Assembly (NCBI GenBank): GCA_963713495.1
Contig: CAVQLX010000018.1
Coordinates: 58,563-122,562, forward strand
Source: an uncultured delta proteobacterium
GTDB lineage: Bacteria; Desulfobacterota; Binatia; DP-6
Reading direction: 5' to 3'
DNA: 64,000 nt
The notes below the pieces were generated by a model. That model did not search any database. It was not told the origin of the DNA and saw nothing but the letters and a program-made list of their open reading frames with translations. The translations under genes and the position numbers were made by a program. Positions 9,595-34,941 of this stretch are shown one piece after another; the stretch's first letter is position 1, and the number at the start of each line of letters is the position of its first letter.

Positions 9595-10955
<1,361 letters not shown>

Positions 10956-12526: not shown

Positions 12527-13005
12527 GCGACGCGGGCGAGCCGGTGCGCGAGGTCACGACCGCGAGCCCCGACGAGACCGAGGCGCTGGGCGCCCGGCTC
12601 GGTCGCGCGGCGCGCGGCGGCGAGCTGCTCGGCCTGGTCGGCGACCTCGGTGCCGGGAAGACGTGCCTGGTCCGCGGCCTGGCCGCCGGGCTCGGCGCCG
12701 ACCCGGACGTCGTGCACAGCCCCACCTTCGTCATCGCCACCGAGTACCGGGGCGGCCGGCTCGCGCTGCACCACGTCGACCTCTACCGCTGCGAGCCACC
12801 GCTGGTGGACACGCTCTTCCTGCGCGAGGCGCTCTACGGCGCCGGCGTCGCAGCCGTCGAGTGGTTCGAGCGTCTCCTGCCGACGGCGGGCGAGGAGTTC
12901 CTCCTCGTCACGCTGCGGACGGGCGCGGGCGACAGCCGGTCGATCCGCCTGGAGGGCCACGGCGCGCGACACGCGGCGTGGCTGCGCGCCGCCGTCGGTT
13001 CGTGA
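12523..13005 (+). CDS. tsaE: tRNA t6A37 biosynthesis ATPase TsaE
   Basis: ATGA overlap with nnr. P-loop LVGDLGAGKTCLVRGL, then VHSPTFVI and HHVDLYR. Confidence 0.9.
   Translation: MSDAGEPVREVTTASPDETEALGARLGRAARGGELLGLVGDLGAGKTCLVRGLAAGLGADPDVVHSPTFVIATEYRGGRLALHHVDLYRCEPPLVDTLFLREALYGAGVAAVEWFERLLPTAGEEFLLVTLRTGAGDSRSIRLEGHGARHAAWLRAAVGS
12831..12947 (+). repeat. direct repeat copy A (3' end of intact tsaE) matching 34761-34874
   Basis: It shares gccgtcgagtggttcgagcg (20/20) and gacagccggtcgatccg (17/17) with the distal copy, with diverged sequence in between. About 39/50 positions are identical over the first 50 nt by hand alignment. Confidence 0.75.
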
Positions 13006-13023
13006 AAGCCAATTGACGACTCC

Positions 13024-14016
13024 GTGCAGCGCAGCTTACCCTTGCCGCCGAGCGTGATGACCAGCTCCTGGAGAGCGCGTTTCACCTTCGACGACGTCCG
13101 CGGTCGAAGCGAAGCCCTGGCGCGGGCGATCTGGATCGGCAGGCGCGCGGCCGAGGGCGGCTACCCGACGCTGATCGTCGGCGAGTCGGGCACGGGCAAG
13201 GAGCTGCTGGCGCACGGCATCCACAACGCCAGTCCGCTGCGCGACGGACCCTTCGTCGCGATCAACTGCGGCACGCTCAACGGCGAGCTGGCGGTGGCGG
13301 AGCTCTGCGGCTACGAGCCGGGCTCGTTCACCGGCGCCGATCGCCGGACGCACGCCGGCATCCTCGACGTCGCGCGCGACGGGACGCTGCTCCTCGACGA
13401 GCTGCAGGACATGCCGGCGACGGCGCAGAGCGCGCTGCTCCGGTTTCTCGAGACCGGGACGTTCGTCCGCGTCGGCGGGACGCAGCTCGTGCAATCGAGC
13501 GTGCGGGTGATCGCCACGCTGAATCTCGCCGTCGAGGAGGTCGAGCGCCGCGGGCTGGTGCGCGCCGACCTGCTCTACCGCCTCAACTGCGTGACCATCG
13601 AGGTGCCGCCGCTCCGCGCGCGGCGCGAGGACATCTGCCCGATCGCGGAGAAGTGCCTGCGCGAGGAGCTGCACTTCCTCGGCGAGGTCGACGAGCCGTT
13701 CTGGGAAGCCATCGCGACCTGCCCGTACGGCTGGCCCGGAAACGCCCGCGGGGTGCGCAACGTCCTCCTGAAGGCCATCCTGACGTCGACCGCCCACCGG
13801 CTCACCGCGGCCGACCTGCCGGCGTTCCTGTGGGACGCGGTGGCCCCAGGTCGGGAGGCGCCGGTCCGGCCGGAAGGGCGGACCCGGAACCACGACGAGG
13901 TGATCGCGCTGCGCGCAGTGCTGCGGGCGAACCGCGACAACGTCTCGGAGGCTGCGCGCAGCCTCGGGATTCACCGCTCGACGGTGTACCGCCGCCTGGC
14001 CCGCTCCGGCAGCTGA
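13024..14016 (+). CDS. sigma-54-dependent transcriptional activator, AAA+ and Fis-type HTH only (no receiver or sensor domain)
   Basis: Walker A GESGTGKE, sigma-54 contact loop GSFTGA, Walker B LLLDEL, and C-terminal HTH SEAARSLGIHRSTVYRRL. Alternative starts are GTG 13054 and ATG 13057. Confidence 0.9.
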   Translation: MQRSLPLPPSVMTSSWRARFTFDDVRGRSEALARAIWIGRRAAEGGYPTLIVGESGTGKELLAHGIHNASPLRDGPFVAINCGTLNGELAVAELCGYEPGSFTGADRRTHAGILDVARDGTLLLDELQDMPATAQSALLRFLETGTFVRVGGTQLVQSSVRVIATLNLAVEEVERRGLVRADLLYRLNCVTIEVPPLRARREDICPIAEKCLREELHFLGEVDEPFWEAIATCPYGWPGNARGVRNVLLKAILTSTAHRLTAADLPAFLWDAVAPGREAPVRPEGRTRNHDEVIALRAVLRANRDNVSEAARSLGIHRSTVYRRLARSGS

Positions 14017-14020
14017 CGGG

Positions 14021-14827
14021 TCAGCAGCGCGCGCTGCCGCCACGCGATGCGGGTGTGGCACCGGGGGACGGGTCGGCCGGCCGATTGCTCACGTCGCGGA
14101 TGGCGATGACGACGCCGATCACCGTGCCGTCGGGATCGCGGATCAGGGTGCTCGTCTCCTCGACGGCGATCCGGGTCCCGTCGCGTGCGACCAGCATGCC
14201 CTGCGCCGTCCCGCCGCTCGTCGGCACGGCGCCGGTGCTGAGCGCGCGCGGCTCCGAGGGCAGCGAGACCCGGACCACGTCGGACAGCGTCCGGCCGGCG
14301 GCTTCCGGCGCGCTCCAGCCGGTGAGCTGCTCCGCGGCGGGGTTCATGAAGCGGATGTGCCACTGCGCGTCGGTGGCGATGATCGTGTCGCCGAGGCTGC
14401 GCAGCGTGGCCGCCAGCCAGCGCTCGCTCTCCTGCAGCCGGCGCTGCAGGTCGTGGCGCTGGAGCGCCATCTCGATCACGATGTGCAGCTCGCGCTCCTC
14501 GAACGGTTTGAGCAGGTAGCCGAACGGCTCCGTGATGCGGGCACGCTGGAGGGTGGCCGGGTCCGCGAAGGCGGTCAGGTAGATCACCGGCACGCCGAAG
14601 CGATCGCGGATCGCGCGCGCGGCCTCGACACCGTCCATCTCGCCACGCAGGTGGATGTCCATCAGGACCAGATCCGGCCGCAGCTCCTCCACGCGGGTGA
14701 TCGCCTCGCTTCCCGTCGCCGCCACGGCGGCAACGGTGTAGCCGAGGCGGCCGAGGGTGGCGCGGATGTCGAGCGCGATGACGCCTTCGTCCTCGACGAT
14801 CAGGATGCTCGGTCGCGTGTGGTTCAT
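14021..14827 (-). CDS. response regulator, REC + PAS, no DNA-binding output
   Basis: True start is ATG 14827 ([15 protein letters not shown]), in an ATGA overlap with the kinase stop. Phospho-acceptor context is DLVLMDIHL. The PAS-like C-half contains [23 protein letters not shown]. Confidence 0.85.
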
Positions 14828-16065
14828 CGCGGGAAGCGAATGCGAAACTCGGTGCCGCCCTCCTGCACCAGTTCGAGCACGCCGTCCAGCTGATCGGTGA
14901 GGGCGCACACCAGCTGCATGCCGAGGGTCGCGGTCGTGCGGGGGTCGAAGCCGGCGGGCAGACCCACCCCGTCGTCCGCAACGGAGAGGAGATAGCGCTC
15001 GCCGTCCTCGGGCCGCAGATCCACCCGCACCTCGCCGCGCCGCTCCGGCGCGTACGCGTACTTGAGGCAGTTCGAGACCAGCTCGTTGATGATGAGTCCG
15101 AGCGGAACCGCGGCGTCGATGCCGAGGTGTACGTCCTCGACGGTGGTGCGGAGCGCGACTCCGCTCGTCTCGGGCTGGTAGGAGCGGAGCAGCAGGTCAC
15201 CGAGGCTGCGTACGTAGTCGGTGAAATCGAGGCGCGACAGATCGGCCGACTGGTAGAGCTTCTCGTGCACCAGGGCCATCGACCGGATGCGATTCCCGCT
15301 CTCCTTGAACATCTCGAGCGTCGCCGGGTCGCGCACGTGCGCCGACTGGAGGCGGAGGAGACTCGAGATGACCTGGAGATTGTTCTTGACCCGGTGGTGG
15401 ATCTCCTCGAGGAGCACTTCCTTCTCGCGCAGCGAGGCCTCGATCTGGTCGGTGCTCGCGCGCACCGCCTCCTCGGCGCGCTTCGACTCCGTGATGTCGT
15501 ACGCGATGCCCTGGATGAAGAGCGGATTCCCGAGCTCGTCGCGCACCACGCGTGCCTCGCCACGCACCCAGACGATTCCGCCGGCGCGCGTGAGCGCGCG
15601 GAACTCGGCGCGGAACGGGCCGCCCGTGCGGCACCCGCGTGCGAACTCGAGATGGCAGCAATCGCGATCGTCGGGATGGAGCTGGCGGAACCACAGGAAC
15701 GGGTTGCTCAGCCACTCCTCCTGCGAGAACCCGAGCAGCGCCTCGATCTGTGGACTCACGTAGAACTCGTGCAGGTCCTCGTCGAGCGCCGCCATGAAGG
15801 TGACCGCCGGGATCTGCTCGACGAGGGACCGGTAGCGCGCCTCCGCCTTCCAGCGCTGCTTCTCGGCAAGCGTCTCGGCGTCAGCCTCGCCCCGCGTGCG
15901 TGCGGGGGCTCCCTCGGGCCGCAGGATCATCGAGAAGGCCTGCGCCATCTCCGTGAGGATCGCCTCGGCATCCTCGACGCTCGCGATCGGGGGATCGCCG
16001 GGTGTCGTCTCGGGCGCCCGCTCGCGGAGGCCCAGCGCACGGGCAGACGGCCGTATGCCGATCAT
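14824..16065 (-). CDS. soluble PAS sensor histidine kinase (HisKA_2 type)
   Basis: ATG 16065 overlaps the large-subunit stop (ATGA). No TM helix. PAS segment is [15 protein letters not shown]...[15 protein letters not shown]-box is [17 protein letters not shown], and the ATPase segments are [12 protein letters not shown] and DDGVGLP. Confidence 0.85.
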
Positions 16066-17840
16066 CGCGGCGTTCCCGGGGACGCGCCGAAGATCGGCGA
16101 GTGCTCGGCCCGGATCACCCGTCCGCCGCCGGTGTACAGGTGGACCCCGCACGGGAGGCAGGGATCGAAGCTGCGCACGGTGCGCATGATGTCGATCCCC
16201 TTGAACCGCTCCGGTGGGTTCTCCTCGAAGAGGGGGGAGTTCTGCACCGCGTCCTCGTACGGGCCCGGCGTGCCGTGCACGTCGCGCGGGCTCGCGTTCC
16301 AGGGGGTGGGCGGGTAGGGGTGATAGTTGGCGATCTTGCCGTCGCGGATCACGAGATGGTGCGAGAGCATGCCGCGCACCGCCTCGTGGAAGCCGCAGCT
16401 GATGGCGTCGTCCGGCACCGTGAAGCTCGTGAAGGTCTCGGTGCGGCCCGCGTGGACGTCGGCGAGGGCGCGGTCGAGGAAGTGCAGGGCAGCCGCGGCG
16501 GCGTATGCCTGGAAGTAGCTGCGCGCCCGGTTGCGCTCCAGCGTGTTGCTCCAGGCGGGAATCTTCCACTCGAGCTCGGTCTCGGGCAGCGTCGCCGACC
16601 TGGGCAGGCGAATGACGACGCTGTGGCCGGTGGCCCGCAGCGTCCCGGTATCGACCAGGCCAGCGAGCGCCGTCACCCACAGGCGCGCGAGGGGACCGCC
16701 GCCCGTGTCGAGCGCCAGGAGGCGCCCCGTCTCGCGGTGCAGCCAGCGCGGCGACATCACCCAGGTGTAGCGCCCCGCGAAGTCACGCCGCTGCGGGCGC
16801 GGGATCGTGGTCTGGTTCCACGGATGGCGCTGATCGACGGGGTTGCCGAGCGGATCCGTGGTGACGAAGACCTCCTGGTCCTCCCAGTCGTCGTAGAACG
16901 AGCTCCCGAGCAGCACGCGGATACCGAGGTTGATGTCGATCAGGTCGGTGGTGAGCAGCTCGCCGTCGACCACCACGCCCGGGGTGACGAACATCGCCCG
17001 GCCCCACTCGCCCATGGTGCGGTAGTCGAAATCGCACGTGGTCGGGTCCTGGAACGAGCCGCCGCAGGCGAGCATCACCCGGCGCCGGCCGACCTCCTCG
17101 TAGCCGGGCAGCGCCTCGTAGAAGAAGTCGAAGAGGTCGTCGTGCAGCGGCACGACCCGCTTCACGAAGTCGACGTAGCGCATGAGCCGCGTCAGGTACT
17201 GCGTGAAGACCTGCACGTCGGCCGGGGTCCCGATGCCGCCCGGGTAGAGCGTCGAGGGATGGACGTGGCGGCCGCCGATCAGCGAGTACATCTCGCGGCT
17301 GACCCGGCTCATGTGGAGCGCCTCGCGGTAGAACTCGCCCTCGAGCGGGTTCAGCGCGCGCATGATGTCGGCGACGGTGCGGTAGCCGTGCACCGCGGCG
17401 TGCGGTGCGGCGGTGGTCTCCGCCCGGCGCAGCACCGACGGATTCGTCTCCCGCACCATGCGCTCGCAGAAGTCGACCCCGACCAGGTTCTCCTGGAAGA
17501 GGTTGTGGTCGAACATGTACTCGGCCGCCTCGGCCAGGTTGATCATCCAGTCGGCGAGCGGCGGCGGCTTCACGCGGAACGCCATGTTCTGCGCGTAGAC
17601 CGCGCACGTCGCGTGGTTGTCGCCGCAGATGCCGCAGATGCGGCTCGTGATGAAGTGCGCGTCGCGCGGGTCCTTGCCCTTCATGAAGACGCTGTAGCCA
17701 CGGAAGATGGACGACGTGCAGCGAGCATCGACGACCCGCCGCGCGGAGAAGTCGATGGTCGCATGGATGCCGAGGCTCCCGACGATGCGGGTGATCGGAT
17801 CCCAGGACATCTGGACGAGATGCGGCGCCGTCGTCGTCAT
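16062..17840 (-). CDS. [NiFe]-hydrogenase large subunit, group 1h/5-type, paralogue 1 (kinase-linked)
   Basis: ATG 17840 ([24 protein letters not shown]) overlaps the small-subunit stop (ATGA). L1 motif is [15 protein letters not shown] and L2 motif is [11 protein letters not shown], followed by the tail [25 protein letters not shown]. Confidence 0.9.
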
Positions 17841-18839
17841 GAGCGCTCGCGGCGCGTGCGCCACTCCGGCTCGCGATCGAGCGACTCGATCGTGAAGGCC
17901 CGCAGCGCCCGCACGGCGCGGCCGTACATGAGCACGGCCGACGACGACATCTTCGCGCCGGGCGGCTCGTCCATGAACGGCATGAACTTGTCCGGGAAGC
18001 CCGGCATCGTGCAGCCGATGCAGATGCCGCCGACGTTCGGGCAGCCGCCGACGCCGCCCATCCACCCGCGCTTCCCGACGTTGCAGCGCACGACCGGGCC
18101 CCAGCAGCCGAGCTTGACGATGCACTTCGGCGTGCCGTGGCCGGCGGCGAAGTCCGCCTGCTCGTAGTAGCCGCCGCGGTCGCAGCCCTCGTGCACGGTC
18201 TGGCTGAAGAGCCAGCGTGGGCGGAGGCAGTCGTCGAGCGGGATCATGGGCGCGCGACCCGCCGCCTGGCGGAGGAGGTAGAGGAGGGTCTCCATGAAGT
18301 TGTCGGGCTGGACGGGACAGCCCGGCACGCAGACGATGGGGATGCCCGCCTGCGAGCGCCACTCCCAGCCGAGGTAGTCGGGCAGTCCCATGCAGCCGGT
18401 CGGGTTGCCCTCCATCGCGTGAATGCCGCCGTAGGTGGCGCAGGTGCCGGCGGCCACCACGGCCCAGGCGTGCGGCGCGATGCGGTCGATCCAGGTGCAC
18501 GTCTTCACCGGCTGGCCGTAGGGTCCGTCGGAGCCCATGGCGGCCCAGTGACCCTCACCCGCCAGCGTCTCGTCCGGGAGCGATCCCTCGACGACGAGGA
18601 TGAAGGGCGCGCCCGTCCCCGTCGCGGCGAGACGGAATCGCGCCAGGAAGTCGTCTCCGGTCTCGTAGGAGAGGAAGCGGGTTGTGGAGCGTGATTCGCG
18701 GGATGCCCGGGAAGGCACCGGTGACGAGCTCCTCGAGGCTCGGCTGCGTCGCCGCGGTGATGGCCACGGTATCGCCGTCGCAGCCGAGGGCCGCGGTCAC
18801 CCACAGCACGTCGATCTCCTCCAACACCGACGAGTCCAT
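17837..18839 (-). CDS. [NiFe]-hydrogenase small subunit, paralogue 1, no Tat signal, apparent +1 frameshift
   Basis: The N-terminus MDSSVLEEIDVLWVTAALGCDGDTVAITAATQPS..PRITLHN is in the frame of ORF 18555-18893. The rest (FLSYETGDDF...GTCATYGGI...GCPNVGGICIGCTMPGFPDKF) is in ORF 17837-18718. Deleting one G of GGG at 18679-18681 gives HNRFLSYETGDDF, which aligns without gaps to HWLLIDYQCGDDF of paralogue 2. Confidence 0.8.
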
Positions 18840-18992
18840 CGCTGCCGGTTCGCTCCTTTGTCGGCCCGCGCTGCGCACGGGCAGCCGGGGCATCCTTTAG
18901 CCTCAATGCGGCGGCGTTGACACGGGGTCGTCGCCAGGCTGTACGCTCCCGGGGAGCGCGGCTATAGTCGCGGACTCGCGCGAGCGAGCCCA

Positions 18993-19946
18993 GTGATGAG
19001 ATCGCGCCGCTCCTGCCTCTCGGTCCCCGGGTCGTCGCCACGGATGCTCGGCAAGGCGCCGGTGCTGCCCGCCGACGAGGTCATCCTCGATCTCGAGGAC
19101 GCCGTCGCGCCGGCGGTCAAGGATGCGGCGCGGGGGCACGTCGTGCGTGCCATCCTCGAGGGTGACTGGGCGGGCAAGACGGTGGCGGTGCGGGTGAACG
19201 GCGTCGAGACCCGGTGGTGCTACCGCGACGTCATCGAGGTGGTCGAGGGCGCGGGACGGCGGCTCGACTGCCTGGTGCTCCCCAAGGCCGAGCGCGCCGC
19301 CGACGTGGTGTTCGTCGACCGCCTGCTCACCATGATCGAGGACACGCATGGCTTCCAGCGGCGGGTGAAGCTCGAGCTGCTCATCGAGACCGCCCTCGGG
19401 CTCGAGAACGTCCGCGAGGTCGCGCGCGCCTCGCCCAGGACCGAGGCGTTGATCCTCGGCCCGGCCGATCTCAGCGCGTCGCTCGGCTTCCCCGGACCGG
19501 TGGCCGCCTCCGGCGCGCCGGGCTACCCGGGCGATCCCTGGCACTGGGTCCGCGGGACGATCCTGGTCGCCGCCCGCGCTGCCGGCCTGCAAGCGATCGA
19601 CGGTCCGCACCTCGACGTGGGAGACGCGGACGGGCAACGGCAGGCGGCGCAGCGGGCACGGGCCCTCGGCTACGACGGCAAGTGGGCACTCCACCCCGCG
19701 CAGCTCGATGCGCTGAACGCGGTGTTCGCCCCGAGCCAGCAGGAGTTCGATCGCGCCGCCGCGGTCCTCGAGGCGTACGCACACGCCACCGGGTCCGAGG
19801 AACGCGGCGCCGTGCGATTCGGGAACGAGATGATCGACGAGGCGTCGCGCAAGCTCGCCGTGCAGTGCGTGGCGCGGGGCCGCGCGGCCGGTCTGCAGCC
19901 AGCGAAGACCTGGGCGGACTTCCAGCGGGAGTGGTCCGCCGGGTGA
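18993..19946 (+). CDS. HpcH/HpaI aldolase / citrate lyase beta (CitE, acyl-CoA lyase)-like protein
   Basis: SCLSVPGSSPRM, ILDLEDAV, LLIETALGL and DGKWALHPAQ are typical of the CitE/malyl-CoA lyase family. Start is GTG 18993 or ATG 18996. Confidence 0.8.
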   Translation: MMRSRRSCLSVPGSSPRMLGKAPVLPADEVILDLEDAVAPAVKDAARGHVVRAILEGDWAGKTVAVRVNGVETRWCYRDVIEVVEGAGRRLDCLVLPKAERAADVVFVDRLLTMIEDTHGFQRRVKLELLIETALGLENVREVARASPRTEALILGPADLSASLGFPGPVAASGAPGYPGDPWHWVRGTILVAARAAGLQAIDGPHLDVGDADGQRQAAQRARALGYDGKWALHPAQLDALNAVFAPSQQEFDRAAAVLEAYAHATGSEERGAVRFGNEMIDEASRKLAVQCVARGRAAGLQPAKTWADFQREWSAG

Positions 19947-20074
19947 GCGGGTAGGGGTCCGGGCGTGGGCGTCGCGCGCCATGGTCGAATGCAGCCGCGA
20001 CGCAATGCGCATGCCACGCCGGCGCCTGATCGGGAGCCCGCACGACGGCGGCGGTCCCCGGGAAGGGCCACGAT

Positions 20075-20088
20075 CTGTCGCGCGACAG
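20075..20088. promoter_or_regulatory. perfect 14-bp palindrome CTGTCGCGCGACAG, candidate activator binding site (UAS)
   Basis: Lies about 190 bp upstream of the sigma-54-type promoter. The GCGACA half-site recurs directly downstream (catGCGACAc). Confidence 0.25.
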
Positions 20089-20161
20089 CATGCGACACCC
20101 GACTACACGCGCCGACTCACGTTCGCACGCGATGGACGCGCGCCCACCGTGACCCGGAACC

Positions 20162-20188
20162 TGTCGCGTCCCGTCGCAGCGCGCGACT
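20162..20188. promoter_or_regulatory. inverted repeat TGTCGCG-N13-CGCGACt, second candidate UAS
   Basis: Same half-site as the palindrome at 20075, about 90-110 bp upstream of the GG/GC promoter elements. Confidence 0.2.
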
Positions 20189-20274
20189 CCCGCGGCGAGC
20201 CGGGCGCCGGCTCCCGCAGCGGCAATTCGCGACGCGGCCGACACTTGGCGAGACGTCAGCCTCGGTGTTCGTCC

Positions 20275-20290
20275 CGGCACGAGACGTGCT
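20275..20290 (+). promoter_or_regulatory. sigma-54-type promoter cGGCACGagacgTGCt upstream of the second hydrogenase operon
   Basis: GG at 20276-20277 and GC at 20288-20289 have the canonical spacing of TGGCACG-N4-TTGCW. It lies about 50 nt upstream of ATG 20338. A weaker tandem copy, ttGGCGagacgtcaGC, is at 20246-20260. Confidence 0.5.
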
Positions 20291-20337
20291 CCAGGAGCGC
20301 CGTCCTCGAAGCCCACGGCGAAGGGAGGGAACCAGAC

Positions 20338-21375: not shown

Positions 21376-21396
21376 GTCACACAGGAGGATAGCGCA

Positions 21397-23193: not shown

Positions 23194-23210
23194 GGGTATC
23201 CGGGGACGCC

Positions 23211-24715: not shown

Positions 24716-25356
24716 GTCAGATCGCCTTCACGGTGCTCGACGCGGCGCCGGTGCCGTACGCGGCGACTCCCACGCTCGCGGTCCGCCTCCACCTCGAGGC
24801 GCCGGCGGGCGAGACCATCCATTCGATCGCGCTGCGCTGCCAGATCCGGATCGAGCCCCAGCGCCGGCGCTACTCGGCGGACGAGGAAGCGCGGCTGCTC
24901 GAGCTCTTCGGGGAGACCCCACGCTGGGGCGACACGCTGAAGCCGTTCCTGTGGACGCACGTGTCGACGATGGTCGTCGGGTTCGCGGGCGGCACCGACG
25001 TCGAGCTGCACGTTCCCTGCACGTACGACCTCGACGTGGCGGCGGCGAAGTACTTCCATGCCCTCGGCGACGGGGAGATCCCGTTGATCCTGCTCTTCAG
25101 CGGGACGGTCTTCGCGAAAGGCGACGGCGGGGCGCTGCGCGTGACCCAGATTCCGTGGGACCGGGAGGCGCGCTTGCGGCTGCCGGTCCGGACGTGGCGC
25201 GAGCTCGTCGATCGCTACTTCCCGAACAGCGGCTGGCTCCGTCTCCGGCGCGACACCCTGGACGCGCTGCTGCGGGTGAAGGCACGCCGCGCGCTCGTCA
25301 CCTGGGACGACGTCCTCGCCGAGCTGCTTCGTGCCGCCGGGGAGGAGGCCGCGTGA
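24712..25356 (+). CDS. conserved hypothetical protein of group 1h hydrogenase clusters
   Basis: ATGA overlap. Begins MSQIAFTVLDAAPVPYAATPTLAVRLHLE. From memory it resembles the DUF6084 family; unverified. Confidence 0.55.
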   Translation: MSQIAFTVLDAAPVPYAATPTLAVRLHLEAPAGETIHSIALRCQIRIEPQRRRYSADEEARLLELFGETPRWGDTLKPFLWTHVSTMVVGFAGGTDVELHVPCTYDLDVAAAKYFHALGDGEIPLILLFSGTVFAKGDGGALRVTQIPWDREARLRLPVRTWRELVDRYFPNSGWLRLRRDTLDALLRVKARRALVTWDDVLAELLRAAGEEAA

Positions 25357-26716: not shown

Positions 26717-27249
26717 GCCCGCGCGTGCTGGTGGCCGGAGTCGGCAACGTCTTCCTCGGCGACGACGGGTTCGGCGTCGAGGTGGCGCGACGGCTCGTGG
26801 GCGAGGCGTTCCCGGAGGGCGTGCAGGTCGCGGACTTCGGCATCCGCGGCGTGCACCTCGCGTACGAGCTGCTGGACGGCTACGACCTGCTCATCCTGGT
26901 CGACGCCGCGCCGCGCGGCGAGGCGCCCGGGACGGTCTTCGTGCTCGAGCCGGACTTCGGGGGCTCGGACGGTGTTGCGCGCGGGGACAGCGGCTTCCTG
27001 CTCGACGCACACAGCCTGGACCCCGAGGTCGTCCTCGGCATCCTCGCCGATCTCGGCGGCACGGTCGGCCGGGTCGTCATCGTCGGCTGCGAGCCCGCCG
27101 AGGTCGTCGAGCGGATGGGCCTGAGCGCACCGGTGTCGCACGCGGTCGACGAGGCCGCGCGCGTGGTCCGCGAGCTGATCGCACGGGCCTGTGACGAAAC
27201 GTCCACCGCGGCGCCGGAAGACGCCGCCAAGCGAAGGGAGGCTCCCTGA
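26713..27249 (+). CDS. hupD: hydrogenase maturation endopeptidase (HupD/HyaD family)
   Basis: GTGA overlap. Contains VLVAGVGNVFLGDDGFGVEVARRL, LILVDA and LDAHSL, typical of the family. Confidence 0.85.
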   Translation: MSPRVLVAGVGNVFLGDDGFGVEVARRLVGEAFPEGVQVADFGIRGVHLAYELLDGYDLLILVDAAPRGEAPGTVFVLEPDFGGSDGVARGDSGFLLDAHSLDPEVVLGILADLGGTVGRVVIVGCEPAEVVERMGLSAPVSHAVDEAARVVRELIARACDETSTAAPEDAAKRREAP

Positions 27250-27350
27250 TGCTACGGATGCTGGCCGCCGCGGTCGCGCTCGGGGTCGCGTACGTCGTCG
27301 TGAACTCGCTCCCCGACGTCGCGCGGTACCTCAAGATCCGCCGGATGTGA
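27249..27350 (+). CDS. 33-aa small membrane peptide MLRMLAAAVALGVAYVVVNSLPDVARYLKIRRM
   Basis: Below the ORF-track size cut-off. Its ATG shares the A of the protease TGA (TGATG). It has one hydrophobic helix plus a basic tail. It resembles small proteins I recall next to actinobacterial hydrogenase proteases (DUF6893-like; unverified). Confidence 0.45.
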   Translation: MLRMLAAAVALGVAYVVVNSLPDVARYLKIRRM

Positions 27351-27363
27351 TCACGGTCCGATC

Positions 27364-27876
27364 GTGAGTCGCTTCCGGATCGTGCCCGAACGATCGAGAA
27401 TCTGGGTGGACGCGCGCTCGAGCCTGCACCCGATCCACGTCGAGACGACGGGGCTGCGCGGCCAGCTCGACGCCACCGTGGCCGACGGTGCCCTCGTGGC
27501 CGGGGGATCGACCACGGGGTCCATCGAGATCGAGGTCGATCGCATGAAGTCGGGGAACGTCCTCTACGACCGCGAGCTGGAGCGCCGGCTCGAGGCGAGA
27601 AAGTACCCGTTCATTCGCGGCTCGGTGCGCGAGGTCACGGCGCTCGGCGACGGCCAGCGGTACCGGGTGCTCGGACAGCTCGAGTTTCACGGCGTCGCGC
27701 GGCCGGTCGAGGGCGAGGTGCGGCTGCGCGTCGTCGACGAGCGCACGCTGGAGATCGAGGGTGAACGCGTCTTCGACCTCCGCGACTACGGGCTCGAGCC
27801 GCCACGCATCCTGATGCTGAAGGTGTATCCCGAGGTGCGCGTGCGCGCCCAGGTGATCGCGGAGCAGGAGCCGTAG
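27364..27876 (+). CDS. YceI-like domain protein
   Basis: 170 aa, GTG start. The pattern [25 protein letters not shown]...[14 protein letters not shown]...[10 protein letters not shown] is YceI-like. Confidence 0.6.
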
Positions 27877-27878
27877 CG

Positions 27879-28148
27879 ATGTGCCTCGGCATCCCGGGAG
27901 AGGTCGTCGATGTGCGCGACGACGCTGGGCTCCGCATCGGGACGGTGCGGTTCGCGGGCATCACGCGCGACGTCTGTCTCGACTACGTCCCGGACGCCGC
28001 CGTGGGGGAGTACGTGCTGGTGCACGTGGGCTTCGCCATCTCGAAGATCGATCCCGAGGAAGCGGCGCGCACGTACCGGGTCCTGGAGGAGCTTGGCCAG
28101 ACGGGCGAGCTCACCGCCGACCGGGAGCTCGTGGAGCCTCCACCATGA
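27879..28148 (+). CDS. hypC: hydrogenase maturation chaperone HypC/HupF family
   Basis: [11 protein letters not shown]-terminus with the essential Cys2, and [12 protein letters not shown]. Confidence 0.9.
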
Positions 28149-29263
28149 AGTATCTCGACGAATATCGCGACGGTGACATCGCAGGCGGCCTGCGCCGCGC
28201 CATCGCCGACACCGCCACCCGCCCCTGGGTCCTGATGGAGGTGTGCGGCGGCCAGACGCACTCGATCGTCCGCTACGGGATCGATCGCATGATCCCGCAG
28301 ACGATCGAGCTCGTGCACGGTCCGGGCTGTCCCGTGTGCGTCACCCCCCTCGAGATGATCGATCGCGCGCACGCGATCGCGCGCCACGCGGACGTGATCT
28401 TCACGTCGTTCGGGGACATGTTGCGCGTTCCGGGGTCGCATGGCGACCTCCTCACCCTGAAGGGCAGGGGCGCCGACGTGCGCGTGGTGTACTCGCCGCT
28501 CGACGCGCTCCGCATCGCACGTGACAACCCGCAGCGGCGCGTCGTCTTCTTCGGGATCGGCTTCGAGACCACGGCGCCCGCGAACGCGATGGCCGTCTTC
28601 CAGGCCCGCCGGCAGGGCCTCGGCAACTTCTCGATGCTCGTGTCGCACGTGCTCGTCCCACCCGCCATGGCGGCCATCCTCGAGTCACCGGACAACCGCG
28701 TGCAGGCGTTCCTCGGTCCCGGCCACGTGTGCGCCATCATGGGCTGCGGCGAGTACGAGGAGCTCTGCGAGCGCCACCGCGTGCCGATCGTGATCACGGG
28801 CTTCGAGCCGCTCGATCTGCTGGAAGGCATCCTGATGGCGGTCCGGCAGCTGGAGGCGGGCCGCGCGGAGGTGGAGAACCAGTACGCGCGCGCCGTCTCG
28901 CACGACGGCAACCAGGCGGCGCGCGACGTCGTCACCCAGGTCTTCGAGGTCGGCGACCGCAAGTGGCGAGGCGTCGGCGCCATCCCTCGCTCCGGGTACC
29001 GGCTGCGCGACGAGTACCGCATGCACGACGCCGAGCGGCTCTTCGCGGTCGAGGACATCGCCACCGCCGAGCCGGAGATCTGCATCAGCGGCCTCATCCT
29101 GCGCGGGCAGCGAAAGCCCTCCGACTGCCCGGCGTTCGGCCGGCAGTGCACCCCCGAGCATCCGCTCGGCGCCACGATGGTGTCGGCCGAGGGCGCCTGT
29201 GCGGCGTACTACCAGTACGGACGCCATCGCGGCGCACCGAGGGAGGCCGGCGATGTCGCTTGA
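28145..29263 (+). CDS. hypD: hydrogenase maturation protein HypD
   Basis: ATGA overlap. Begins MKYLDEYRD and contains [25 protein letters not shown] and PGHVCAIMG. Confidence 0.95.
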
Positions 29264-30320
29264 CGGCGCCGGCCGCGCGGAGCCGTTCGGCGAGTGCCCG
29301 TTGCCGGTCACGCAGAGCGAGGAGATCCTGCTCGGGCACGGCAGCGGGGGGAAGCTGAGCGCGCAGCTGATCGAGCGCCTCTTCGTCCCGGCCTTCCGGA
29401 ACCCGCTCCTGGACGCGCTCGACGATCAGGCAATCCTGACGGTCGAGGCGTCCCGTCTCGCCTTCACCACCGACTCCTACGTGGTCACCCCGATCTTCTT
29501 CCCCGGCGGCGACATCGGGGAGCTGGCCGTGAACGGCACGGTGAACGACCTCGCCGTCGGCGGGGCGCAGCCGCTCGCGCTGTCCCTCGCCTTCATCCTC
29601 GAGGAGGGGCTACCCCTGGCCGACCTGCGCCGCGTGGTGGAGTCGGCGCGGCAGGCGGCGGAACGCGCCGGCGTCCGGATCGTCACCGGCGACACGAAGG
29701 TCGTCGGGCGCGGCAGCGGCGACAAGATCTTCGTCAACACCTCGGGCATCGGCATCGTGCCGCCGGGCGTCGACCTGTCGTCCCGCAACGTGCGCCCGGG
29801 CGACGTGGTGCTGCTCTCGGGACCGATCGGGGACCACGGCGTGGCGATCCTCTCGCAGCGGGAGGGGCTGACGTTCGCGGGCGAGATCGCGAGCGACACC
29901 GCCCCGCTCCACGAGCTCGTGGCCGCCGCGCTCGCGGCGAGCCCGCGCATCCACGCCATGCGCGACCCCACGCGCGGCGGGGTCGCCGCCACCCTGGTCG
30001 AGATCGCGTCACGCCAGCGCGTCGGCATCGAGGTCGACGAGCGCGCCATCCCGGTGCGCGACGTCGTGCGCGGCGCGTGCGAGATCCTCGGGCTGGATCC
30101 CCTCCTGGTGGCGAACGAGGGCAAGCTCGTCGCCTTCGTTCCCGCCCGGGATGCCAGCGCCGTCCTCGCGGCGATGCGAGCGCACCCGCTCGGACGGGAC
30201 GCCGTGCGGATCGGGCATGTCACGGACGAGCATCCGGGCACCGTGCTGCTGCGGACGCCGATCGGTGGCGATCGCATCCTCGATCTGCCCTTCGGCGAGG
30301 CGTTGCCGCGCATCTGCTGA
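29253..30320 (+). CDS. hypE: hydrogenase maturation carbamoyl dehydratase HypE
   Basis: RBS GAGGGAGG precedes ATG 29253. Contains [10 protein letters not shown] and the C-terminal PRIC motif. Confidence 0.95.
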
Positions 30321-30357
30321 GATGAACGGCTCGACGCAGGACGCCCGGGGGGCGTGC

Positions 30358-30642
30358 TCAGCCGGGAGGCCGGATGCCGGGCGGCACCATCTCGGCCAGC
30401 GGGAGCACCTCGTAGCGCGAGTAGTTGTAGACCGGCGAGCGCGCCAGGAGCATGTCCAGCTCCTCGTTCGAGGTCACGTCGTAGATCCACGCGCCGCCGT
30501 GCGTCCCGGGGATGTGGTAGCGGGCGACGACCTTGCCCTGCGTCTCGAGCGGCGTGGCGTAGTCCGCCATCCGCATCACGGACTGGAGCACCTCGCGTGA
30601 CAGGAGGGCGATGTCGATGCGCCAGATGACCAGGAATTTCAT
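30358..30642 (-). CDS. small muconolactone-isomerase-like / DUF3303-like protein
   Basis: 94 aa, MKFLVIWRIDI...GAWIYDVTSNEELDMLLARSPVYNYSRYEVLPLAEM. The fold-family call is from sequence pattern only. It lies downstream of the second hypC-like gene. Confidence 0.45.
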   Translation of the reverse strand: MKFLVIWRIDIALLSREVLQSVMRMADYATPLETQGKVVARYHIPGTHGGAWIYDVTSNEELDMLLARSPVYNYSRYEVLPLAEMVPPGIRPPG

Positions 30643-30657
30643 CGCCGCTCCGTCCCG

Positions 30658-30900
30658 TCAGTCGCGATCCGGGCCGCCGGTGTACTCGCGCAGCGCGGCG
30701 ATCTGCTCCCGTGCGGTCGCCTCGTCGAGCGTATCCATGGCGAAGCCGGCGTGGATCAGTATCCAGTCGCCCGGGCGAAGCGTCTCGCGGTCGAGGAGCG
30801 CGACGTTGATGCGGCGGACCATGCCGGCCACGTCGACGTCCGCGAGGTCTGGCTGGTCGGACGGCAGGGCGACCACGCGTCCGACGATGCCGAGGCACAT
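30658..30900 (-). CDS. second HypC/HupF-family chaperone
   Basis: MCLGIVGRVVAL N-terminus and GDWILIHAGFAM. It is divergent from hypF. Confidence 0.85.
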   Translation of the reverse strand: MCLGIVGRVVALPSDQPDLADVDVAGMVRRINVALLDRETLRPGDWILIHAGFAMDTLDEATAREQIAALREYTGGPDRD

Positions 30901-30957
30901 GCGCCGACCCTACCACGGCGACCGGCAGGCGCGCGACCCACGTGGAGGGTCGGCCTG

Positions 30958-33318
30958 ATGCGTACGCTCTCGGCGGGAACCGGAAACACGCGGCGGAACA
31001 CCGCCACGCGCGAGCGCTGGCGCATTCACGTCGATGGGCTGGTGCAGGGCGTCGGGTTCCGCCCCTTCGCCCACGCCCTCGCGACGCGCCTGGGCCTCGC
31101 GGGCCACGTCGCCAACGATACGCGCGGCGCGGTGGTCGAGATCGAGGGCGACGGCAAGGCGGTCGCGCGCTTCGTCGACATGCTGGTGCGCGAGGCGCCG
31201 CCGCTGGCGGTGATCGAGCAGCTCGCGCACGTCAGCCTGCGCACCCTCGGGGAGCGCCAGTTCGCGATCCTGGACAGCGCGACGGGCGGCGAGCGCCAGG
31301 TCCTGGTGTCGCCCGACGTCGCCACGTGCGAGGACTGCCTCCGCGAGCTGTTCGACCCGCACGATCGACGCTTCCGCTACCCGTTCACCAATTGCACGAA
31401 CTGCGGCCCGCGCTTCACGATCGTGCGTGACGTGCCGTACGACCGGCCGCGTACCACGATGGCCGGCTTCGCCATGTGTCGGGACTGCGCGCGCGAGTAC
31501 GAGGATCCCGCGGACCGCCGCTTCCACGCGCAGCCGATCGCGTGCCCGGCGTGCGGTCCGCAGCTGCGCCTGGTGACGCGGCGGGGCGAGACGCTTCCCG
31601 GTGAGCCGATCGAGGTCGCCGCCGAGCTGCTGCGCGCGGGGCGTATCGTCGCGGTGAAGGGCCTCGGCGGCTATCACCTGGCCGCCGTGGCCTGCGACGA
31701 GGAGGCCGTCGCCGCGCTGCGCTGCCGCAAGCACCGCGAGGAGAAGCCGTTCGCGGTGATGGCGCGCGACCTGACGGCCGCCCGCGAGCTGGTGGAGCTG
31801 GACGTGGATGCGGAGCGCGTCCTCGCCGGGCCGCGACGGCCGATCGTCCTGCTTCCACGGCGTCAGGGCGCGGCGATCGCCGAGGCGGTGGCGCCCGGCA
31901 CGGCACAGCTCGGGGTGATGCTGCCCTACACGCCGCTGCATCACCTGCTGGCGCGGCGCCTGCGGGTGCCCTTCGTCCTCACCAGCGGCAACGTGTCGGA
32001 CGAGCCCATCGCGCACGACGATCGCGACGCGCTCGCGCGCCTCGGTCCGATCGCCAAGTTCTTCCTGGTGCACGATCGTCCCATCCACGTGCGCACCGAC
32101 GACTCCGTGGTACGGATGTTCCGGGGACGCGAGATGCCCGTGCGCCGCGCACGCGGGCACGCGCCGCAGCCGGTCGTGGTGTCGCACACGGCGCCCCGGC
32201 CGATCCTCGCCTGCGGCGCCGAGCTGAAGAGCACCTTCTGTCTCCTGAAGGACCGCTACGCGTTCGTGTCGCCCCACGTCGGCGACCTCGAGAACTACGC
32301 CACCATGCAGGCGTTCAGCGAGGGCATCCGGCACTTCCGGCGTCTGTTCGACGTGACGCCGGAGCTCGTCGCCCACGATCTGCATCCCGAGTACCTCTCG
32401 ACGAAGTACGCCCTCGAGTCCGCTGGCGTCGAGCTCGTCGGTGTCCAGCACCATCACGCGCACGTGGCGTCCTGCCTGGCGGACAACCGCGAGGAGGGCC
32501 CCGTCATCGGGGTCGCCTTCGACGGCCTCGGCTTCGGGACGGACGGGACCCTCTGGGGAGGCGAGTTCCTGGTGGCGACGCTGCGGAGCTTCGAGCGCGC
32601 GGCGCACTTCGCGGCGGTGCCCATGCCCGGCGGCACGATGGCCATCCGCCAGCCGTGGCGGATGGCGGCCAGCTACCTCGCCGCCGCCTACGGCGACGCC
32701 ATCCCGGCGCTCGGCGTCGTGGAGCGCAACCAGCGCAACTGGGCGTCGATCGTCAGCCTGCAGCGCGCGGGCGTCGCATCCCCCGCCACGTCGAGCGTCG
32801 GCCGGCTCTTCGACGCGGTCGCGGCCCTCGTCGGCGTACGCGACGTGATCAGCTACGAGGGACAGGCGGCGATCGCGCTCGAGCAGTGCATCGAGCGGAG
32901 CGAGCAGGGGGCATACCCGGCCGGCTGGTCCGAGAACGCGCGGGAGATCCTGGTGTGCGGCGCCGATTTCGTGCGGGCCGCGGCCGACGACCTGCGGAAC
33001 GGCGCCCATCCGGGGGTCGTGGCCGCGCGCTTCCACCGGGGACTCGCGCGCGTCACGGGCGAGGTCTGCGCCGCGATCCGGGAGCGGACGGGTCACGGGA
33101 CGGTGGCGCTGAGCGGCGGCGTGTTCCAGAACGCGTTCCTGCTCGACCGCACGCTGGCGGAGCTGGAGGAGCGCGGCTTCCGCGTGCTCACGCACGCGCG
33201 CATCCCGCCGAACGACGGTGGAATCAGCTTCGGGCAGGCGGCGGTCGCCGCCGCCCGCGATCGCGCCCGTCGAGGACCGCGTCGCATCCATGAGCAGCGG
33301 AGCGAGGGAGGGCACTGA
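30958..33318 (+). CDS. hypF: carbamoyltransferase HypF
   Basis: Acylphosphatase-like VDGLVQGVGFRPF, two Zn-finger pairs (CEDCLREL..CTNCGPRF; CRDCAREY..CPACGPQL), YrdC-like GLGGYHLA, and a Kae1-like C-terminus. Confidence 0.95.
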   Translation: MRTLSAGTGNTRRNTATRERWRIHVDGLVQGVGFRPFAHALATRLGLAGHVANDTRGAVVEIEGDGKAVARFVDMLVREAPPLAVIEQLAHVSLRTLGERQFAILDSATGGERQVLVSPDVATCEDCLRELFDPHDRRFRYPFTNCTNCGPRFTIVRDVPYDRPRTTMAGFAMCRDCAREYEDPADRRFHAQPIACPACGPQLRLVTRRGETLPGEPIEVAAELLRAGRIVAVKGLGGYHLAAVACDEEAVAALRCRKHREEKPFAVMARDLTAARELVELDVDAERVLAGPRRPIVLLPRRQGAAIAEAVAPGTAQLGVMLPYTPLHHLLARRLRVPFVLTSGNVSDEPIAHDDRDALARLGPIAKFFLVHDRPIHVRTDDSVVRMFRGREMPVRRARGHAPQPVVVSHTAPRPILACGAELKSTFCLLKDRYAFVSPHVGDLENYATMQAFSEGIRHFRRLFDVTPELVAHDLHPEYLSTKYALESAGVELVGVQHHHAHVASCLADNREEGPVIGVAFDGLGFGTDGTLWGGEFLVATLRSFERAAHFAAVPMPGGTMAIRQPWRMAASYLAAAYGDAIPALGVVERNQRNWASIVSLQRAGVASPATSSVGRLFDAVAALVGVRDVISYEGQAAIALEQCIERSEQGAYPAGWSENAREILVCGADFVRAAADDLRNGAHPGVVAARFHRGLARVTGEVCAAIRERTGHGTVALSGGVFQNAFLLDRTLAELEERGFRVLTHARIPPNDGGISFGQAAVAAARDRARRGPRRIHEQRSEGGH

Positions 33319-33320
33319 GC

Positions 33321-33600
33321 ATGGGAACGCTGGCCGGGTTGATCGTCGGCTACGTGGTGGGCGCCGGCACGGGGCCCGAGGGATACCGGAAGCTGCGCGA
33401 GGCCTGGGAGGAGATCCAGGCATCGGACGAGTGGAAGGGTCTCGTCGCGACGGCCACCGGGTTCGTCCAGAACGCGCTCGCTCGCGGCGGGACGGCCTTC
33501 ACCGAGCACGTCGGAGCTCTGGCAGCGCTGCCAGCACCTCCTCTCGAGCGGGATGGAGCTGCTCGGCGGCGTCCTCGAGCAGGGCAAGGGCCGGAGGTAG
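33321..33600 (+). CDS. small hypothetical protein between hypF and hypA, probable +1 frameshift
   Basis: MGTLAGLIVGYVVGAGTGPEGYRKLREAWEEIQASDEWKGL...TEHV is in frame 0. The frame-1 continuation ELWQRCQHLLSSGMELLGGVLEQGKGRR ends at TAG 33598-33600, 1 nt before the hypA ATG. The track's 33321-33887 reading instead runs through hypA. The shift is near GG 33513-33514. Confidence 0.4.
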
Positions 33601-33601
33601 G

Positions 33602-33931
33602 ATGCACGAGCTCGCCGTCACCGAGAGCATCGTCGCGGCCATCACCGAGCGTCTCGGCGACGCCCGGATCGCACGCGTCGTCCTCGAGGTGGGCAGCCTG
33701 TCCGGCGTCGTCCCGGAGGCCGTGCAGTTCTGCTTCGACGTCTGCACCCAGGGCACGGTGCTCGATGGCGCCGCGCTCGAGATCGTCACGCTCCCCGGCC
33801 GGGCGCGCTGCTGCACCTGCGCGGCGGAAGCGGAGATCGCGGATCTCCTCGCCGTCTGTCCGTGCGGCAGCATCTCGCTCGAGGTGATGGCCGGGCAGGA
33901 GCTCCGCATCAGGGAAGTGGAGGTGCGCTAG
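33602..33931 (+). CDS. hypA: hydrogenase nickel insertion protein HypA
   Basis: MHELAVTESIV N-terminus and Zn site CCTC...CPCG. Confidence 0.9.
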   Translation: MHELAVTESIVAAITERLGDARIARVVLEVGSLSGVVPEAVQFCFDVCTQGTVLDGAALEIVTLPGRARCCTCAAEAEIADLLAVCPCGSISLEVMAGQELRIREVEVR

Positions 33932-34705
33932 ATGTGCGCGACGTGCGGCTGCGGTGACCACCACGATCATCACGATCACGATCACGTCCACGGGGCGGAC
34001 GACGTCCCGCACGTGCACCCGCGCCAGACGCCGCGGACGGTGCGCCTGGAGCAGGACGTCCTCGCGAAGAACGACCGGCTCGCCGCGCGCAATCGCGCCT
34101 GGCTGGACGAGCGCGGCGTGGTCGCGCTGAACGTCATGAGCTCGCCGGGGGCGGGCAAGACGACGTTGCTCGAGCGGACGGTCCGCGAGCTCGCCGGCGA
34201 GCTGGCGATCGGCGTGATCGAGGGCGATCAGGCCACCGTGCGCGACGCCGAGCGCATCCGGACCGCCGGCGGGCGTGTCGTGCAGATCAACACGGGAACC
34301 GGCTGCCACCTCGATGCGGACATGGTCGCCGCGGCGCTGCGCGAGCTCGATCCGCCGGCGCGCTCCCTGGTCCTCATCGAGAACATCGGCAACCTCGTCT
34401 GCCCGGCCCTGTTCGCGCTCGGCGAGCGCGCGAAGGTCGTGCTGATGGCGGTGACCGAGGGCGAGGACAAGCCGCTCAAGTACCCGCACATGTTCCGCGC
34501 GAGCGACGTCCTGGTGCTCACAAAGATCGACCTCCTGCCGCACCTCGACTTCGACGTCGCGCACTGCCTCGAGTTCGCGCGCCGCACGAATCCGCGGCTC
34601 GATATCCTCCAGACGTCGGCCACGCGCGGAGCGGGGCTCGACGGGTGGTACGCGCGACTCCGCGCGAGCGTCGCGGAGGGCCTGCGGGCGCTCGACGCGC
34701 GCTGA
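33932..34705 (+). CDS. hypB: hydrogenase nickel incorporation GTPase HypB
   Basis: N-terminal CATCGC plus the His-rich stretch HHDHHDHDHVH. P-loop SSPGAGKTTLL, and ENIGNLVCPA. Confidence 0.95.
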   Translation: MCATCGCGDHHDHHDHDHVHGADDVPHVHPRQTPRTVRLEQDVLAKNDRLAARNRAWLDERGVVALNVMSSPGAGKTTLLERTVRELAGELAIGVIEGDQATVRDAERIRTAGGRVVQINTGTGCHLDADMVAAALRELDPPARSLVLIENIGNLVCPALFALGERAKVVLMAVTEGEDKPLKYPHMFRASDVLVLTKIDLLPHLDFDVAHCLEFARRTNPRLDILQTSATRGAGLDGWYARLRASVAEGLRALDAR

Positions 34706-34709
34706 CGGC

Positions 34710-34733
34710 GCGGGGGCCGGCTTGAGCCCCCGC
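34710..34733 (+). terminator. GC-rich hairpin GCGGGGGC-N8-GCCCCCGC just after the hypB stop
   Basis: 8-bp perfect stem with an 8-nt loop, 5 nt after the stop. There is no adjacent U-tract. It sits at the right edge of the island. Confidence 0.3.
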
Positions 34734-34758
34734 CGGTGGATGGGCTATTTGGAGCGTG

Positions 34759-34932
34759 ATGCTCCACGGCGCACGAACTGCCGCCGTCGAGTGGTTCGAG
34801 CGGCTGCTTCCCGCGGCCGGCGGGTGCGACCCCGCCTCACGGCGTGCCGGGGCGGGGGACAGCCGGTCGATCCGACTCGCGGCCCCTGGCCCACGGTCCC
34901 TGTCGCCGGCGCCGATCGCGCGCGGCACCTGA
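34759..34932 (+). pseudogene. displaced 3'-terminal remnant of tsaE
   Basis: The 57-codon frame MLHGARTAAVEWFERLLPAAGGCDPASRRAGAGDSRSIRLAAPG... parallels the tsaE C-terminus LYGAGVAAVEWFERLLPTAGEEFLLVTLRTGAGDSRSIRLEGHG. It has no P-loop part. Its stop lies 9 nt before the lysC GTG. Confidence 0.65.
34761..34874 (+). repeat. direct repeat copy B (diverged tsaE 3' end) matching 12831-12947
   Basis: See copy A. The identical cores are at 34783-34802 and 34858-34874. Confidence 0.75.
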
Positions 34933-34941
34933 GGGGCGGGC

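Follow-up and report, generated by a model that had tools for sequence, protein, structure and literature searches.

A repeat of the tsaE 3' end ahead of lysC in Binatia that predates the hydrogenase island lying between its copies

A repeat of a gene end around a genomic island is usually read as the scar of an integration event. The repeat considered here is that of the 3' end of tsaE in a 64,000-nucleotide stretch of DNA (referred to as the window) from an uncultured delta proteobacterium of the Binatia (GenBank contig CAVQLX010000018.1). It brackets a block of 21.7 kb comprising [NiFe]-hydrogenase, maturation (hyp) and regulator genes, and its distal copy, a stub of tsaE, directly adjoins the aspartate kinase gene lysC. 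Relatives of the source organism indicate that the tsaE repeat predates the island and that it has been kept by selection. (The practical consequence for annotation pipelines is that relatives with an empty site should be checked before such repeats are called att sites.)

Among described systems, the e14 element (and phage 21) in the icd gene of E. coli offers a close likeness: an intact gene is followed by cargo and, on the far side, by a diverged and truncated 3' copy (icdC). However, e14 has its own integrase and is excised site-specifically, and its duplication was made by integration; the tsaE locus is without a recombinase, its duplication is present without cargo in relatives, and its displaced copy appears to be under selective maintenance, unlike a pseudogene left over from integration. 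As related in a passage of PMC13626634 (citing Hill et al. 1989), recombination between icd and icdC can remove the cargo, leaving a chimeric functional gene. Islands at the 3' ends of tRNA and tmRNA genes likewise show gene-end direct repeats around accessory genes, and variable cargo at one locus, but they have short identical att cores and a tyrosine integrase at the island edge, and the tsaE locus has neither. Duplication-degeneration-complementation (subfunctionalisation), reportedly set out by Force et al. in 1999, is comparable in that overlapping functions are split, one copy remaining coding and the other keeping cis-elements for the downstream gene. The classical version concerns whole genes and their enhancers, whereas at tsaE it is ~230 nucleotides (nt) of gene end overlapping the leader of the next gene, with an insertion site as by-product. 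Lysine riboswitch (L-box)/lysC leaders also place a structured region of ~190 nt directly upstream of an aspartokinase gene; the stub differs from them in forming one long hairpin, which stems from coding sequence, and in lacking an Rfam match, and ligand binding by it would be pure speculation. Each ingredient is of a known kind, be it the island at a gene end, the partial duplication, the subfunctionalisation or the promoter within an upstream gene. Their combination deserves recording as a variant, in that a gene-end repeat resembling an att scar would be a control region that has been maintained, predates the island and serves as its docking site.

The genes and repeat copies at the two ends of the block are the following (window coordinates; the loci of relatives carry L numbers).
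12523-13005, plus strand: intact tsaE, 160 amino acids (aa), with the P-loop GAGKT (Pfam PF02367, E 3e-28; NCBIfam TIGR00150 above cutoff)
12793-13010, plus strand: proximal repeat copy, tsaE nt 271 to the stop codon plus ~5 nt, coding (from blastn; its end, TCGTGAAAG, is colinear with ...TGAAAG of L174 and L175)
34724-34932, plus strand: distal tsaE 3' stub, holding an open 58-codon frame at 34756-34932 (orthologous stubs in L173, L087, L084 and L172)
34933-34941, plus strand: 9-nt spacer from the stub stop to the lysC GTG (identical spacing in L174, L175 and the contig of P0011)
34942-36156, plus strand: lysC, aspartate kinase (NCBIfam NF005155, 612 bits)
36172-37755, downstream of lysC: citramalate synthase (TIGR00977, 714 bits)

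With tsaE (12523-13005) as blastn query against the whole window, a single match stands out: tsaE nt 271-436 (12793-12958) align with 34724-34885 at 120 of 166 positions (72% identity, 83 bits, E 5e-18), and the runner-up scores 37 bits. The TsaE protein, searched by tblastn, matches the same region (aa 104-149 with 34762-34896, E 4e-10; runner-up, E 0.07). The repeat contains a 20-nt identical core (GCCGTCGAGTGGTTCGAGCG), present solely at 12853-12872 and 34783-34802, and one of 17 nt (GACAGCCGGTCGATCCG), present solely at 12931-12947 and 34858-34874; shuffled sequence would not be expected to contain either. Formal alignment thus bears out an earlier note on this DNA, made from inspection of the sequence, in its claim that the two segments are homologous and in its placing of both cores. 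The extent of the homology has to be corrected: it sets in earlier than had been noted, at 34724, which is 19 nt past the hypB stop (34705), and the homologous stretch upstream of the distal GTG contains a 1-nt frame break and an in-frame TGA. From that GTG the distal frame runs for 58 codons, lacks the P-loop and ends with a TGA 9 nt ahead of the lysC GTG at 34942; it is a stub, as had been described.

The gene order pgm-nnr-tsaE-lysC-cimA is contiguous in ~40 Binatia loci. Because tsaE is directly followed by lysC in these ~40 genomes, the hydrogenase/hyp/regulator block, assigned to group 1h, is an insertion between the two genes. The close relatives have a TsaE 75-89% identical to that of the window; a metagenome scan based on LysC returned mainly distant taxa and 3 useful loci. 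The island begins right after tsaE in L081, L169 and L170, and its far end in L173 has the order HypA-HypB-stub-lysC.

Relatives that lack the island had been expected to have a single copy of the tsaE end, and they carry the extra stub. In L087 (and in an independent assembly, L088) tsaE is followed by 80 nt, a fully open 58-codon stub, 9 nt and lysC. In L084 (and L085, L086) a DUF4258/DUF2283 gene pair lies between tsaE and the stub. In L172 an eroded stub starts within the stop codon of the proximal tsaE (GGCACC joined to TTGAGCC), the two copies lying head to tail with 0 nt of foreign DNA between them. The contig of P0011, judged by gene coordinates, has tsaE, 190 nt, a 58-aa open reading frame (ORF), 9 nt and lysC. 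Matches to the island in the spacers of L087 and L084 are at chance level at most. Since L087, L084 and L172 have the stub without the island, the earlier reading of the repeats as an attL/attR-like scar of block integration is not supported; this is the very observation that had been named in advance as telling against it.

The ancestral arrangement is seen in L174 and L175, which have one tsaE whose stop is 9 nt ahead of lysC. Their tsaE 3' ends are of the stub type, with a TTGAGC...TATTT box and with hairpin arms (see below) that are 100% identical to those of the window stub; the L174 gene ends ...GGCACCTGA, as the window stub does, and that of L175 ends ...GGCGCGTGA. In position, then, the distal copy is orthologous to the ancestral tsaE 3' end, and the spacing of stub and lysC is, as the earlier note supposed, the ancestral tsaE-lysC junction. 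The proximal 3' end had in turn been thought to be a replacement borne by an element. Its distances to relatives parallel those of the tsaE 5' core, which is a host-like phylogeny, and a foreign origin was rejected for want of any discordance with the 5' part. In the window the match of the proximal copy to the ancestral gene end extends through the stop codon and AAG. The L087 proximal copy is followed by AAGCCGGCGTGAC, like the ancestral spacer and lysC GTG, that of the island clade by AAGCC..TTGACG, which is related to the L087 sequence, and at three sites a derived base is common to the proximal copies. The colinear proximal end, the spacer-like tails and the three derived sites together point to what was probably one duplication, from tsaE nt ~262 through the lysC start. 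(The motif D-T-L-F-L was also considered as a derived marker of proximal copies and was dropped, being common in the single-copy TsaE of remoter relatives.) The island-bearing genomes form one clade in housekeeping-protein trees (100% bootstrap), and island genes are 77-98% identical across this clade, on par with flanking housekeeping genes; this fits a single acquisition followed by vertical descent. The old age of the event, which the earlier note had suggested, is supported, and no integrase is present.

Two elements of the stub are conserved.
34722-34751, plus strand: promoter-like box at the 5' end of the stub, TTGAGC (34722-34727), 18 nt, TATTTG (34746-34751), proposed from conservation
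34788-34879, plus strand: conserved imperfect inverted repeat (hairpin) of ~92 nt with a variable middle; left arm 34788-34814, right arm 34852-34879

The hairpin, whose arms of 27-28 nt have the motifs GGTTCGAGCGGCTGCTTCCCGC ... GACAGCCGGTCGATCCGACTCG, holds most of the two identical cores. The repeats had been described as a fossil att-like signature, but the arms of the stub are 93-100% identical among six lineages (~80% in L172), whereas identity at the fourfold-degenerate sites of lysC in the same lineages is only 47-67%. For the middle and tail of the stub, most comparisons give 30-78% identity (the tail 88-92% among L087, L084 and L174). Between the window and L173 the arms show 1 difference in 59 positions despite a common scrambled middle, and this shared scrambling implies that the stub was non-coding before the two split. 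These comparisons show strong constraint on parts of the stub at the nucleotide level, which a neutral fossil would not have.

The arms pair as a 24-bp hairpin around the indel-rich variable middle. The window stub forms 24/24 pairs (minimum free energy -59 kcal/mol, z -2.95), and the hairpin is the minimum-energy structure in all seven of the lysC-adjacent copies, with z from -2.4 to -5.2; three proximal copies fold with z from -0.5 to -2.0 (window proximal copy: z -1.97, 19/24 pairs). Pairs are kept at 23-24 of 24 in lysC-adjacent copies and at 16-21 of 24 in proximal ones, but at 23 in the proximal copy of L084. An RNA role of the hairpin is likely. Two known kinds of structure were tried and rejected: the lysine riboswitch (RF00168), which gives no Rfam match even at E 10, and, on inspection, an integron attC-like hairpin, there being no R'/R'' motif, no IntI and no cassette-like cargo.

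The box, in the form TTGAGC, 17-18 nt, TATnnn, occurs in every stub but that of L084 and also inside tsaE of L174 and L175, where it is written in rare AT-ending codons (6/18 vs 10-17% gene-wide). Proximal copies have GC-ending codons at this position, with 1-4 of 18 codons AT-ending (1/18 in the window). Conservation and codon usage suggest that this 5' element of the stub may be a promoter. A fixed promoter position inside tsaE of deep Binatia relatives was sought and gave no positional peak; the box is specific to the close group. The stub frame opens with GTG or ATG 4-9 nt past the box (14 nt in L172), it stops within 10 nt of the lysC start in 5/5 stubs, and its net indels (-3, -15, -30) are all multiples of three. 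There are hints here of translational coupling of this frame to lysC.

The history that we favour, with moderate confidence, is a partial tandem duplication followed by complementary degeneration of the two copies and, later, by the capture of cargo at their junction. In the ancestor of this Binatia subgroup the tsaE stop would have stood 9 nt ahead of lysC, and the last ~215 nt of tsaE would have doubled as lysC cis-elements, namely a TTGAGC-N18-TATTTx box, a ~92-nt hairpin and a frame stopping beside lysC. Partial tandem duplication, presumably in a single event, of the segment from tsaE nt ~262 through the lysC start codon would have created the order tsaE - junction - stub - lysC. The proximal copy would then have remained coding but without the promoter-like codons and the strong hairpin; in the stub beside lysC, coding quality would have been lost, while the box, the arms, the open frame and the 9-nt junction persisted. 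At the level of sequence this complementary loss does hold. The junction between the copies, interrupting nothing, would have been a permissive landing site, occupied differently from lineage to lineage: by ~0-80 nt, by the DUF4258/DUF2283 pair in one case, and, in the ancestor of the window clade, by the 21.7-kb block. The island would have entered in this way, and the hydrogenase block would have been vertically inherited since then.

A more far-reaching proposal is put forward only tentatively. The stub might be a functional and previously undescribed lysC leader of a Binatia subgroup (promoter, ~92-nt conserved hairpin and an upstream open reading frame whose frame is preserved and whose stop is 9 nt ahead of lysC), born inside tsaE and freed by a duplication that also made a neutral docking site, which captured the 21.7-kb trace-gas hydrogenase island. 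The conserved elements would, on this proposal, act on lysC expression. If box and hairpin do control lysC, the locus would be a clean natural case of an overlap of coding and control resolved by a small duplication, and the resolved junction a safe entry for large accessory blocks, for example that of a high-affinity hydrogenase, without an integrase.

A number of points weigh against this history and against a leader function. All data come from metagenome assemblies, and the far end of the island is known from the window and one other lineage, L173. The box matches the consensus weakly (7-8 of 12 positions), consensus promoter and terminator scans at both repeat copies and at L174 gave nothing at threshold, and in the stub of L084 the -35 element is degraded and 11 nt are inserted. 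The hairpin shows no significant covariation, as there is hardly any variation in its arms: 98.8% of cells are paired, 16/24 pairs are invariant, and the score is reached in 70 of 500 shuffles (19 of 500 with functional copies added); a role as RNA and one at the DNA level are for this reason not told apart. Rfam yields no match, either across the window at gathering threshold or within 34650-34990 at E<=10. Open frames are frequent by chance at 71% GC, and the stub frame is therefore suggestive at most. The trees give no firm deep order among L175, L172, L084/L174, L087 and the island clade, with L174 sister to L084 solely in trees that include nnr; stubs have no degenerative indels common to lineages; and one duplication with a reversion is not firmly separable from several duplications. 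L174 may be a revertant that arose by recombination between tsaE copies, as between icd and icdC at the loss of e14, or there may have been more than one duplication.

In the latter case each lineage (the island clade, L087, L084, L172) would have made its own duplication, possibly with its own cargo; the 3' end of tsaE overlaps lysC cis-elements, so that only rearrangements duplicating the overlap would survive. Such recurrence would account for the lack of shared degenerative indels and for decay that differs between an intact stub in L087 and a heavily eroded one in L172. It would also account for the differing junctions (the copies abut directly in L172, and homology starts ~5 nt earlier in L087/L084), for the grouping of single-copy L174 with stub-bearing L084 in nnr-containing trees, and for a separate 43-nt copy of the promoter-like segment before lysC in L089. 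Nevertheless, the proximal copies share their three derived sites, L087 and the island clade have the same right-hand end (AAGCC..TGACG), repeated use of an identical left boundary needs selection or a site-specific mechanism, and one event with recombinational reversion in L174 is simpler. Recurrent independent duplication is on these grounds rather unlikely.

Similarly unlikely is the origin of the block as an integrative element that entered the 3' part of tsaE site-specifically, left the stub as the displaced native end (attR) and later lost its integrase, the island-free stubs then being due to cargo loss or to other elements at the same att site. The topology is as expected of such an element (intact gene, cargo, truncated 3' copy), the distal copy does carry the ancestral junction to lysC, and cargo varies by lineage between the same repeats; moreover, the left boundary of the stub is near-constant (tsaE nt ~262-268) in all lineages, single-copy L174 and L175 do exist, and e14 in icd with its icdC fragment provides a precedent (PMC13626634). 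However, no recombinase domain was detected in the island ORFs scanned (Pfam/NCBIfam), nor a recombinase next to tsaE or the stub in the four island-bearing loci L081, L169, L170 and L173 or in L084; on the lack of an integrase the earlier note was right. L087 (80 nt) and L172 (0 nt) have both copies with no detectable island remnants, the island clade is derived and monophyletic, and proximal 3' ends are phylogenetically concordant with the 5' part of the gene. The copies are 72% identical, with long identical cores only within independently constrained segments, and GC is uniform (0.68-0.74 within the island vs 0.70-0.74 outside; third-position GC of island genes, 0.83-0.96, is flank-like). 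Of the earlier proposal that the block is one integrative element at the tsaE 3' end, the insertion and the ancestral character of the distal end stand, and the origin of the repeats as an att scar is not supported. Chance similarity in GC-rich DNA or an assembly artefact is excluded as the source of the repeat: at the 71% GC of the window, weak local matches (30-37 bits) are plentiful, but the match scores 83 bits against this 37-bit background and E 4e-10 at the protein level, and the structure recurs in independent assemblies (L084/L085/L086, L087/L088, L173, L081-L083).

The block between the copies, which duplication followed by cargo capture would make a late arrival at the junction, has the following content.
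13013-13042, plus strand: promoter-like TTGACG-N17-TTACCC at the left edge of the island, ahead of the sigma-54 activator gene, proposed from conservation
13024-14016, plus strand: sigma-54 activator without a receiver domain, first island gene, probable start 13054/13057 (PF00158, E 3e-48; HTH_8)
14021-18718, minus strand: response regulator-PAS, PAS histidine kinase and a second [NiFe]-hydrogenase large/small pair, a group-1h paralogue (Pfam)
18993-23193, plus strand: HpcH/HpaI aldolase-like gene, then group-1h [NiFe]-hydrogenase small (19981-21375) and large (21397-23193) subunits (Pfam)
23285-34705, plus strand: accessory and maturation genes, with HypB at 33932-34705 (Pfam; same order in L173)

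The last of these segments holds unknowns, DUF6084, a HycI-like protease, YceI, HypC, HypD, HypE, a MIase-like protein and a second HypC on the minus strand, HypF, the HypA region and HypB. The left-edge element is kept as AATTGACGAC...(C)TTAC(C/G)C in the window, L169 and L170, and reads GATTGACGAC...CCTACCC in L081; at 13013-13042 it is under the threshold of the consensus scan. The sigma-54 activator gene is also next after tsaE in L081, L169 and L170. The large subunit encoded on the plus strand matches HofG of PDB 5AA5 with 1071 bits over residues 7-574 (other classes, <=164 bits), and by this closest characterised large subunit the enzyme is placed in group 1h. The match to Cupriavidus necator HofG (5AA5), DUF6084, the hyp genes and the protease are shared with known clusters of this group (actinobacterial-type, Hhy/Hof). 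The window cluster differs from these in its extra, 72%-identical hydrogenase pair beside a histidine kinase, a response regulator and a sigma-54 activator.

This minus-strand pair (16062-18718) adjoins the PAS histidine kinase and response regulator-PAS genes (14021-16680) and the sigma-54 activator gene (13024-14016). Its large subunit and the catalytic group-1h one of the same island share 72% identity, and the pair is not of the group-2b sensor type; it could be a 1h-derived H2 sensor that controls a high-affinity hydrogenase. The second hydrogenase and its regulator module are also kept in L081, L169 and L170. The L170 island (16333-20495, compared with window 18993-23743) is without the HpcH aldolase-like gene between the hydrogenase modules, and after the large subunit it has a NifU/Rieske-like gene at the place of an unannotated 152-aa ORF in the window.

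The tsaE-lysC junction is a recurrent insertion point across the Binatia group. The DUF4258/DUF2283 pair of L084 (10662-11134), toxin-antitoxin-like small genes, is present in three independent assemblies. Ten distant Binatia loci (L002, L006, L007, L009, L010, L011, L012, L020, L024, L125) have a tsaE-lysC gap of 0.5-3.3 kb with varied small cargo, and no tsaE stub was detected in these ten gaps. The gap contains a near-identical 110-aa ORF on the opposite strand in L006, L007, L009 and L024, and a 139-aa ORF in L010. In L020 it holds an ORF of 372 aa with the P-loop motif GKT, and in L125 one of 463 aa that has a dinucleotide-binding motif, GAGPGG, in its N-terminal part. In L089, an outgroup with a TsaE 64% identical, a 43-nt copy of the promoter-like tsaE segment stands alone at 9952-9993 (TTGGAGCCCGCTCGCCTCTGAGCTATCGT), 8 nt ahead of the lysC ATG; it may be either a separate mini-duplication or a stub cut down to its box.

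Some irregular gene calls in this material should be mentioned. In the long-read contig of L172, a single 911-aa call joins lysC and citramalate synthase, FtsH is in pieces and pgm falls short; these fused and truncated calls are probably indel errors, and fine detail of the L172 stub needs caution. TsaE of P0107 (same species by TsaE, on a 1.1-Mb contig) also has a frameshift, and for that reason long-read indel errors are suggested to occur in this material. The divergent C-terminus of P0107 was considered as a native alternative end and rejected, since it is the same sequence with a frameshift. In the window itself nnr (10975-12526) lies in two frames, as judged against the 515-aa protein of L081, with residues 1-168 in frame 1, residues 169-505 in frame 2 and the break near 11481-11483; the split may be either a real frameshift or an assembly indel.

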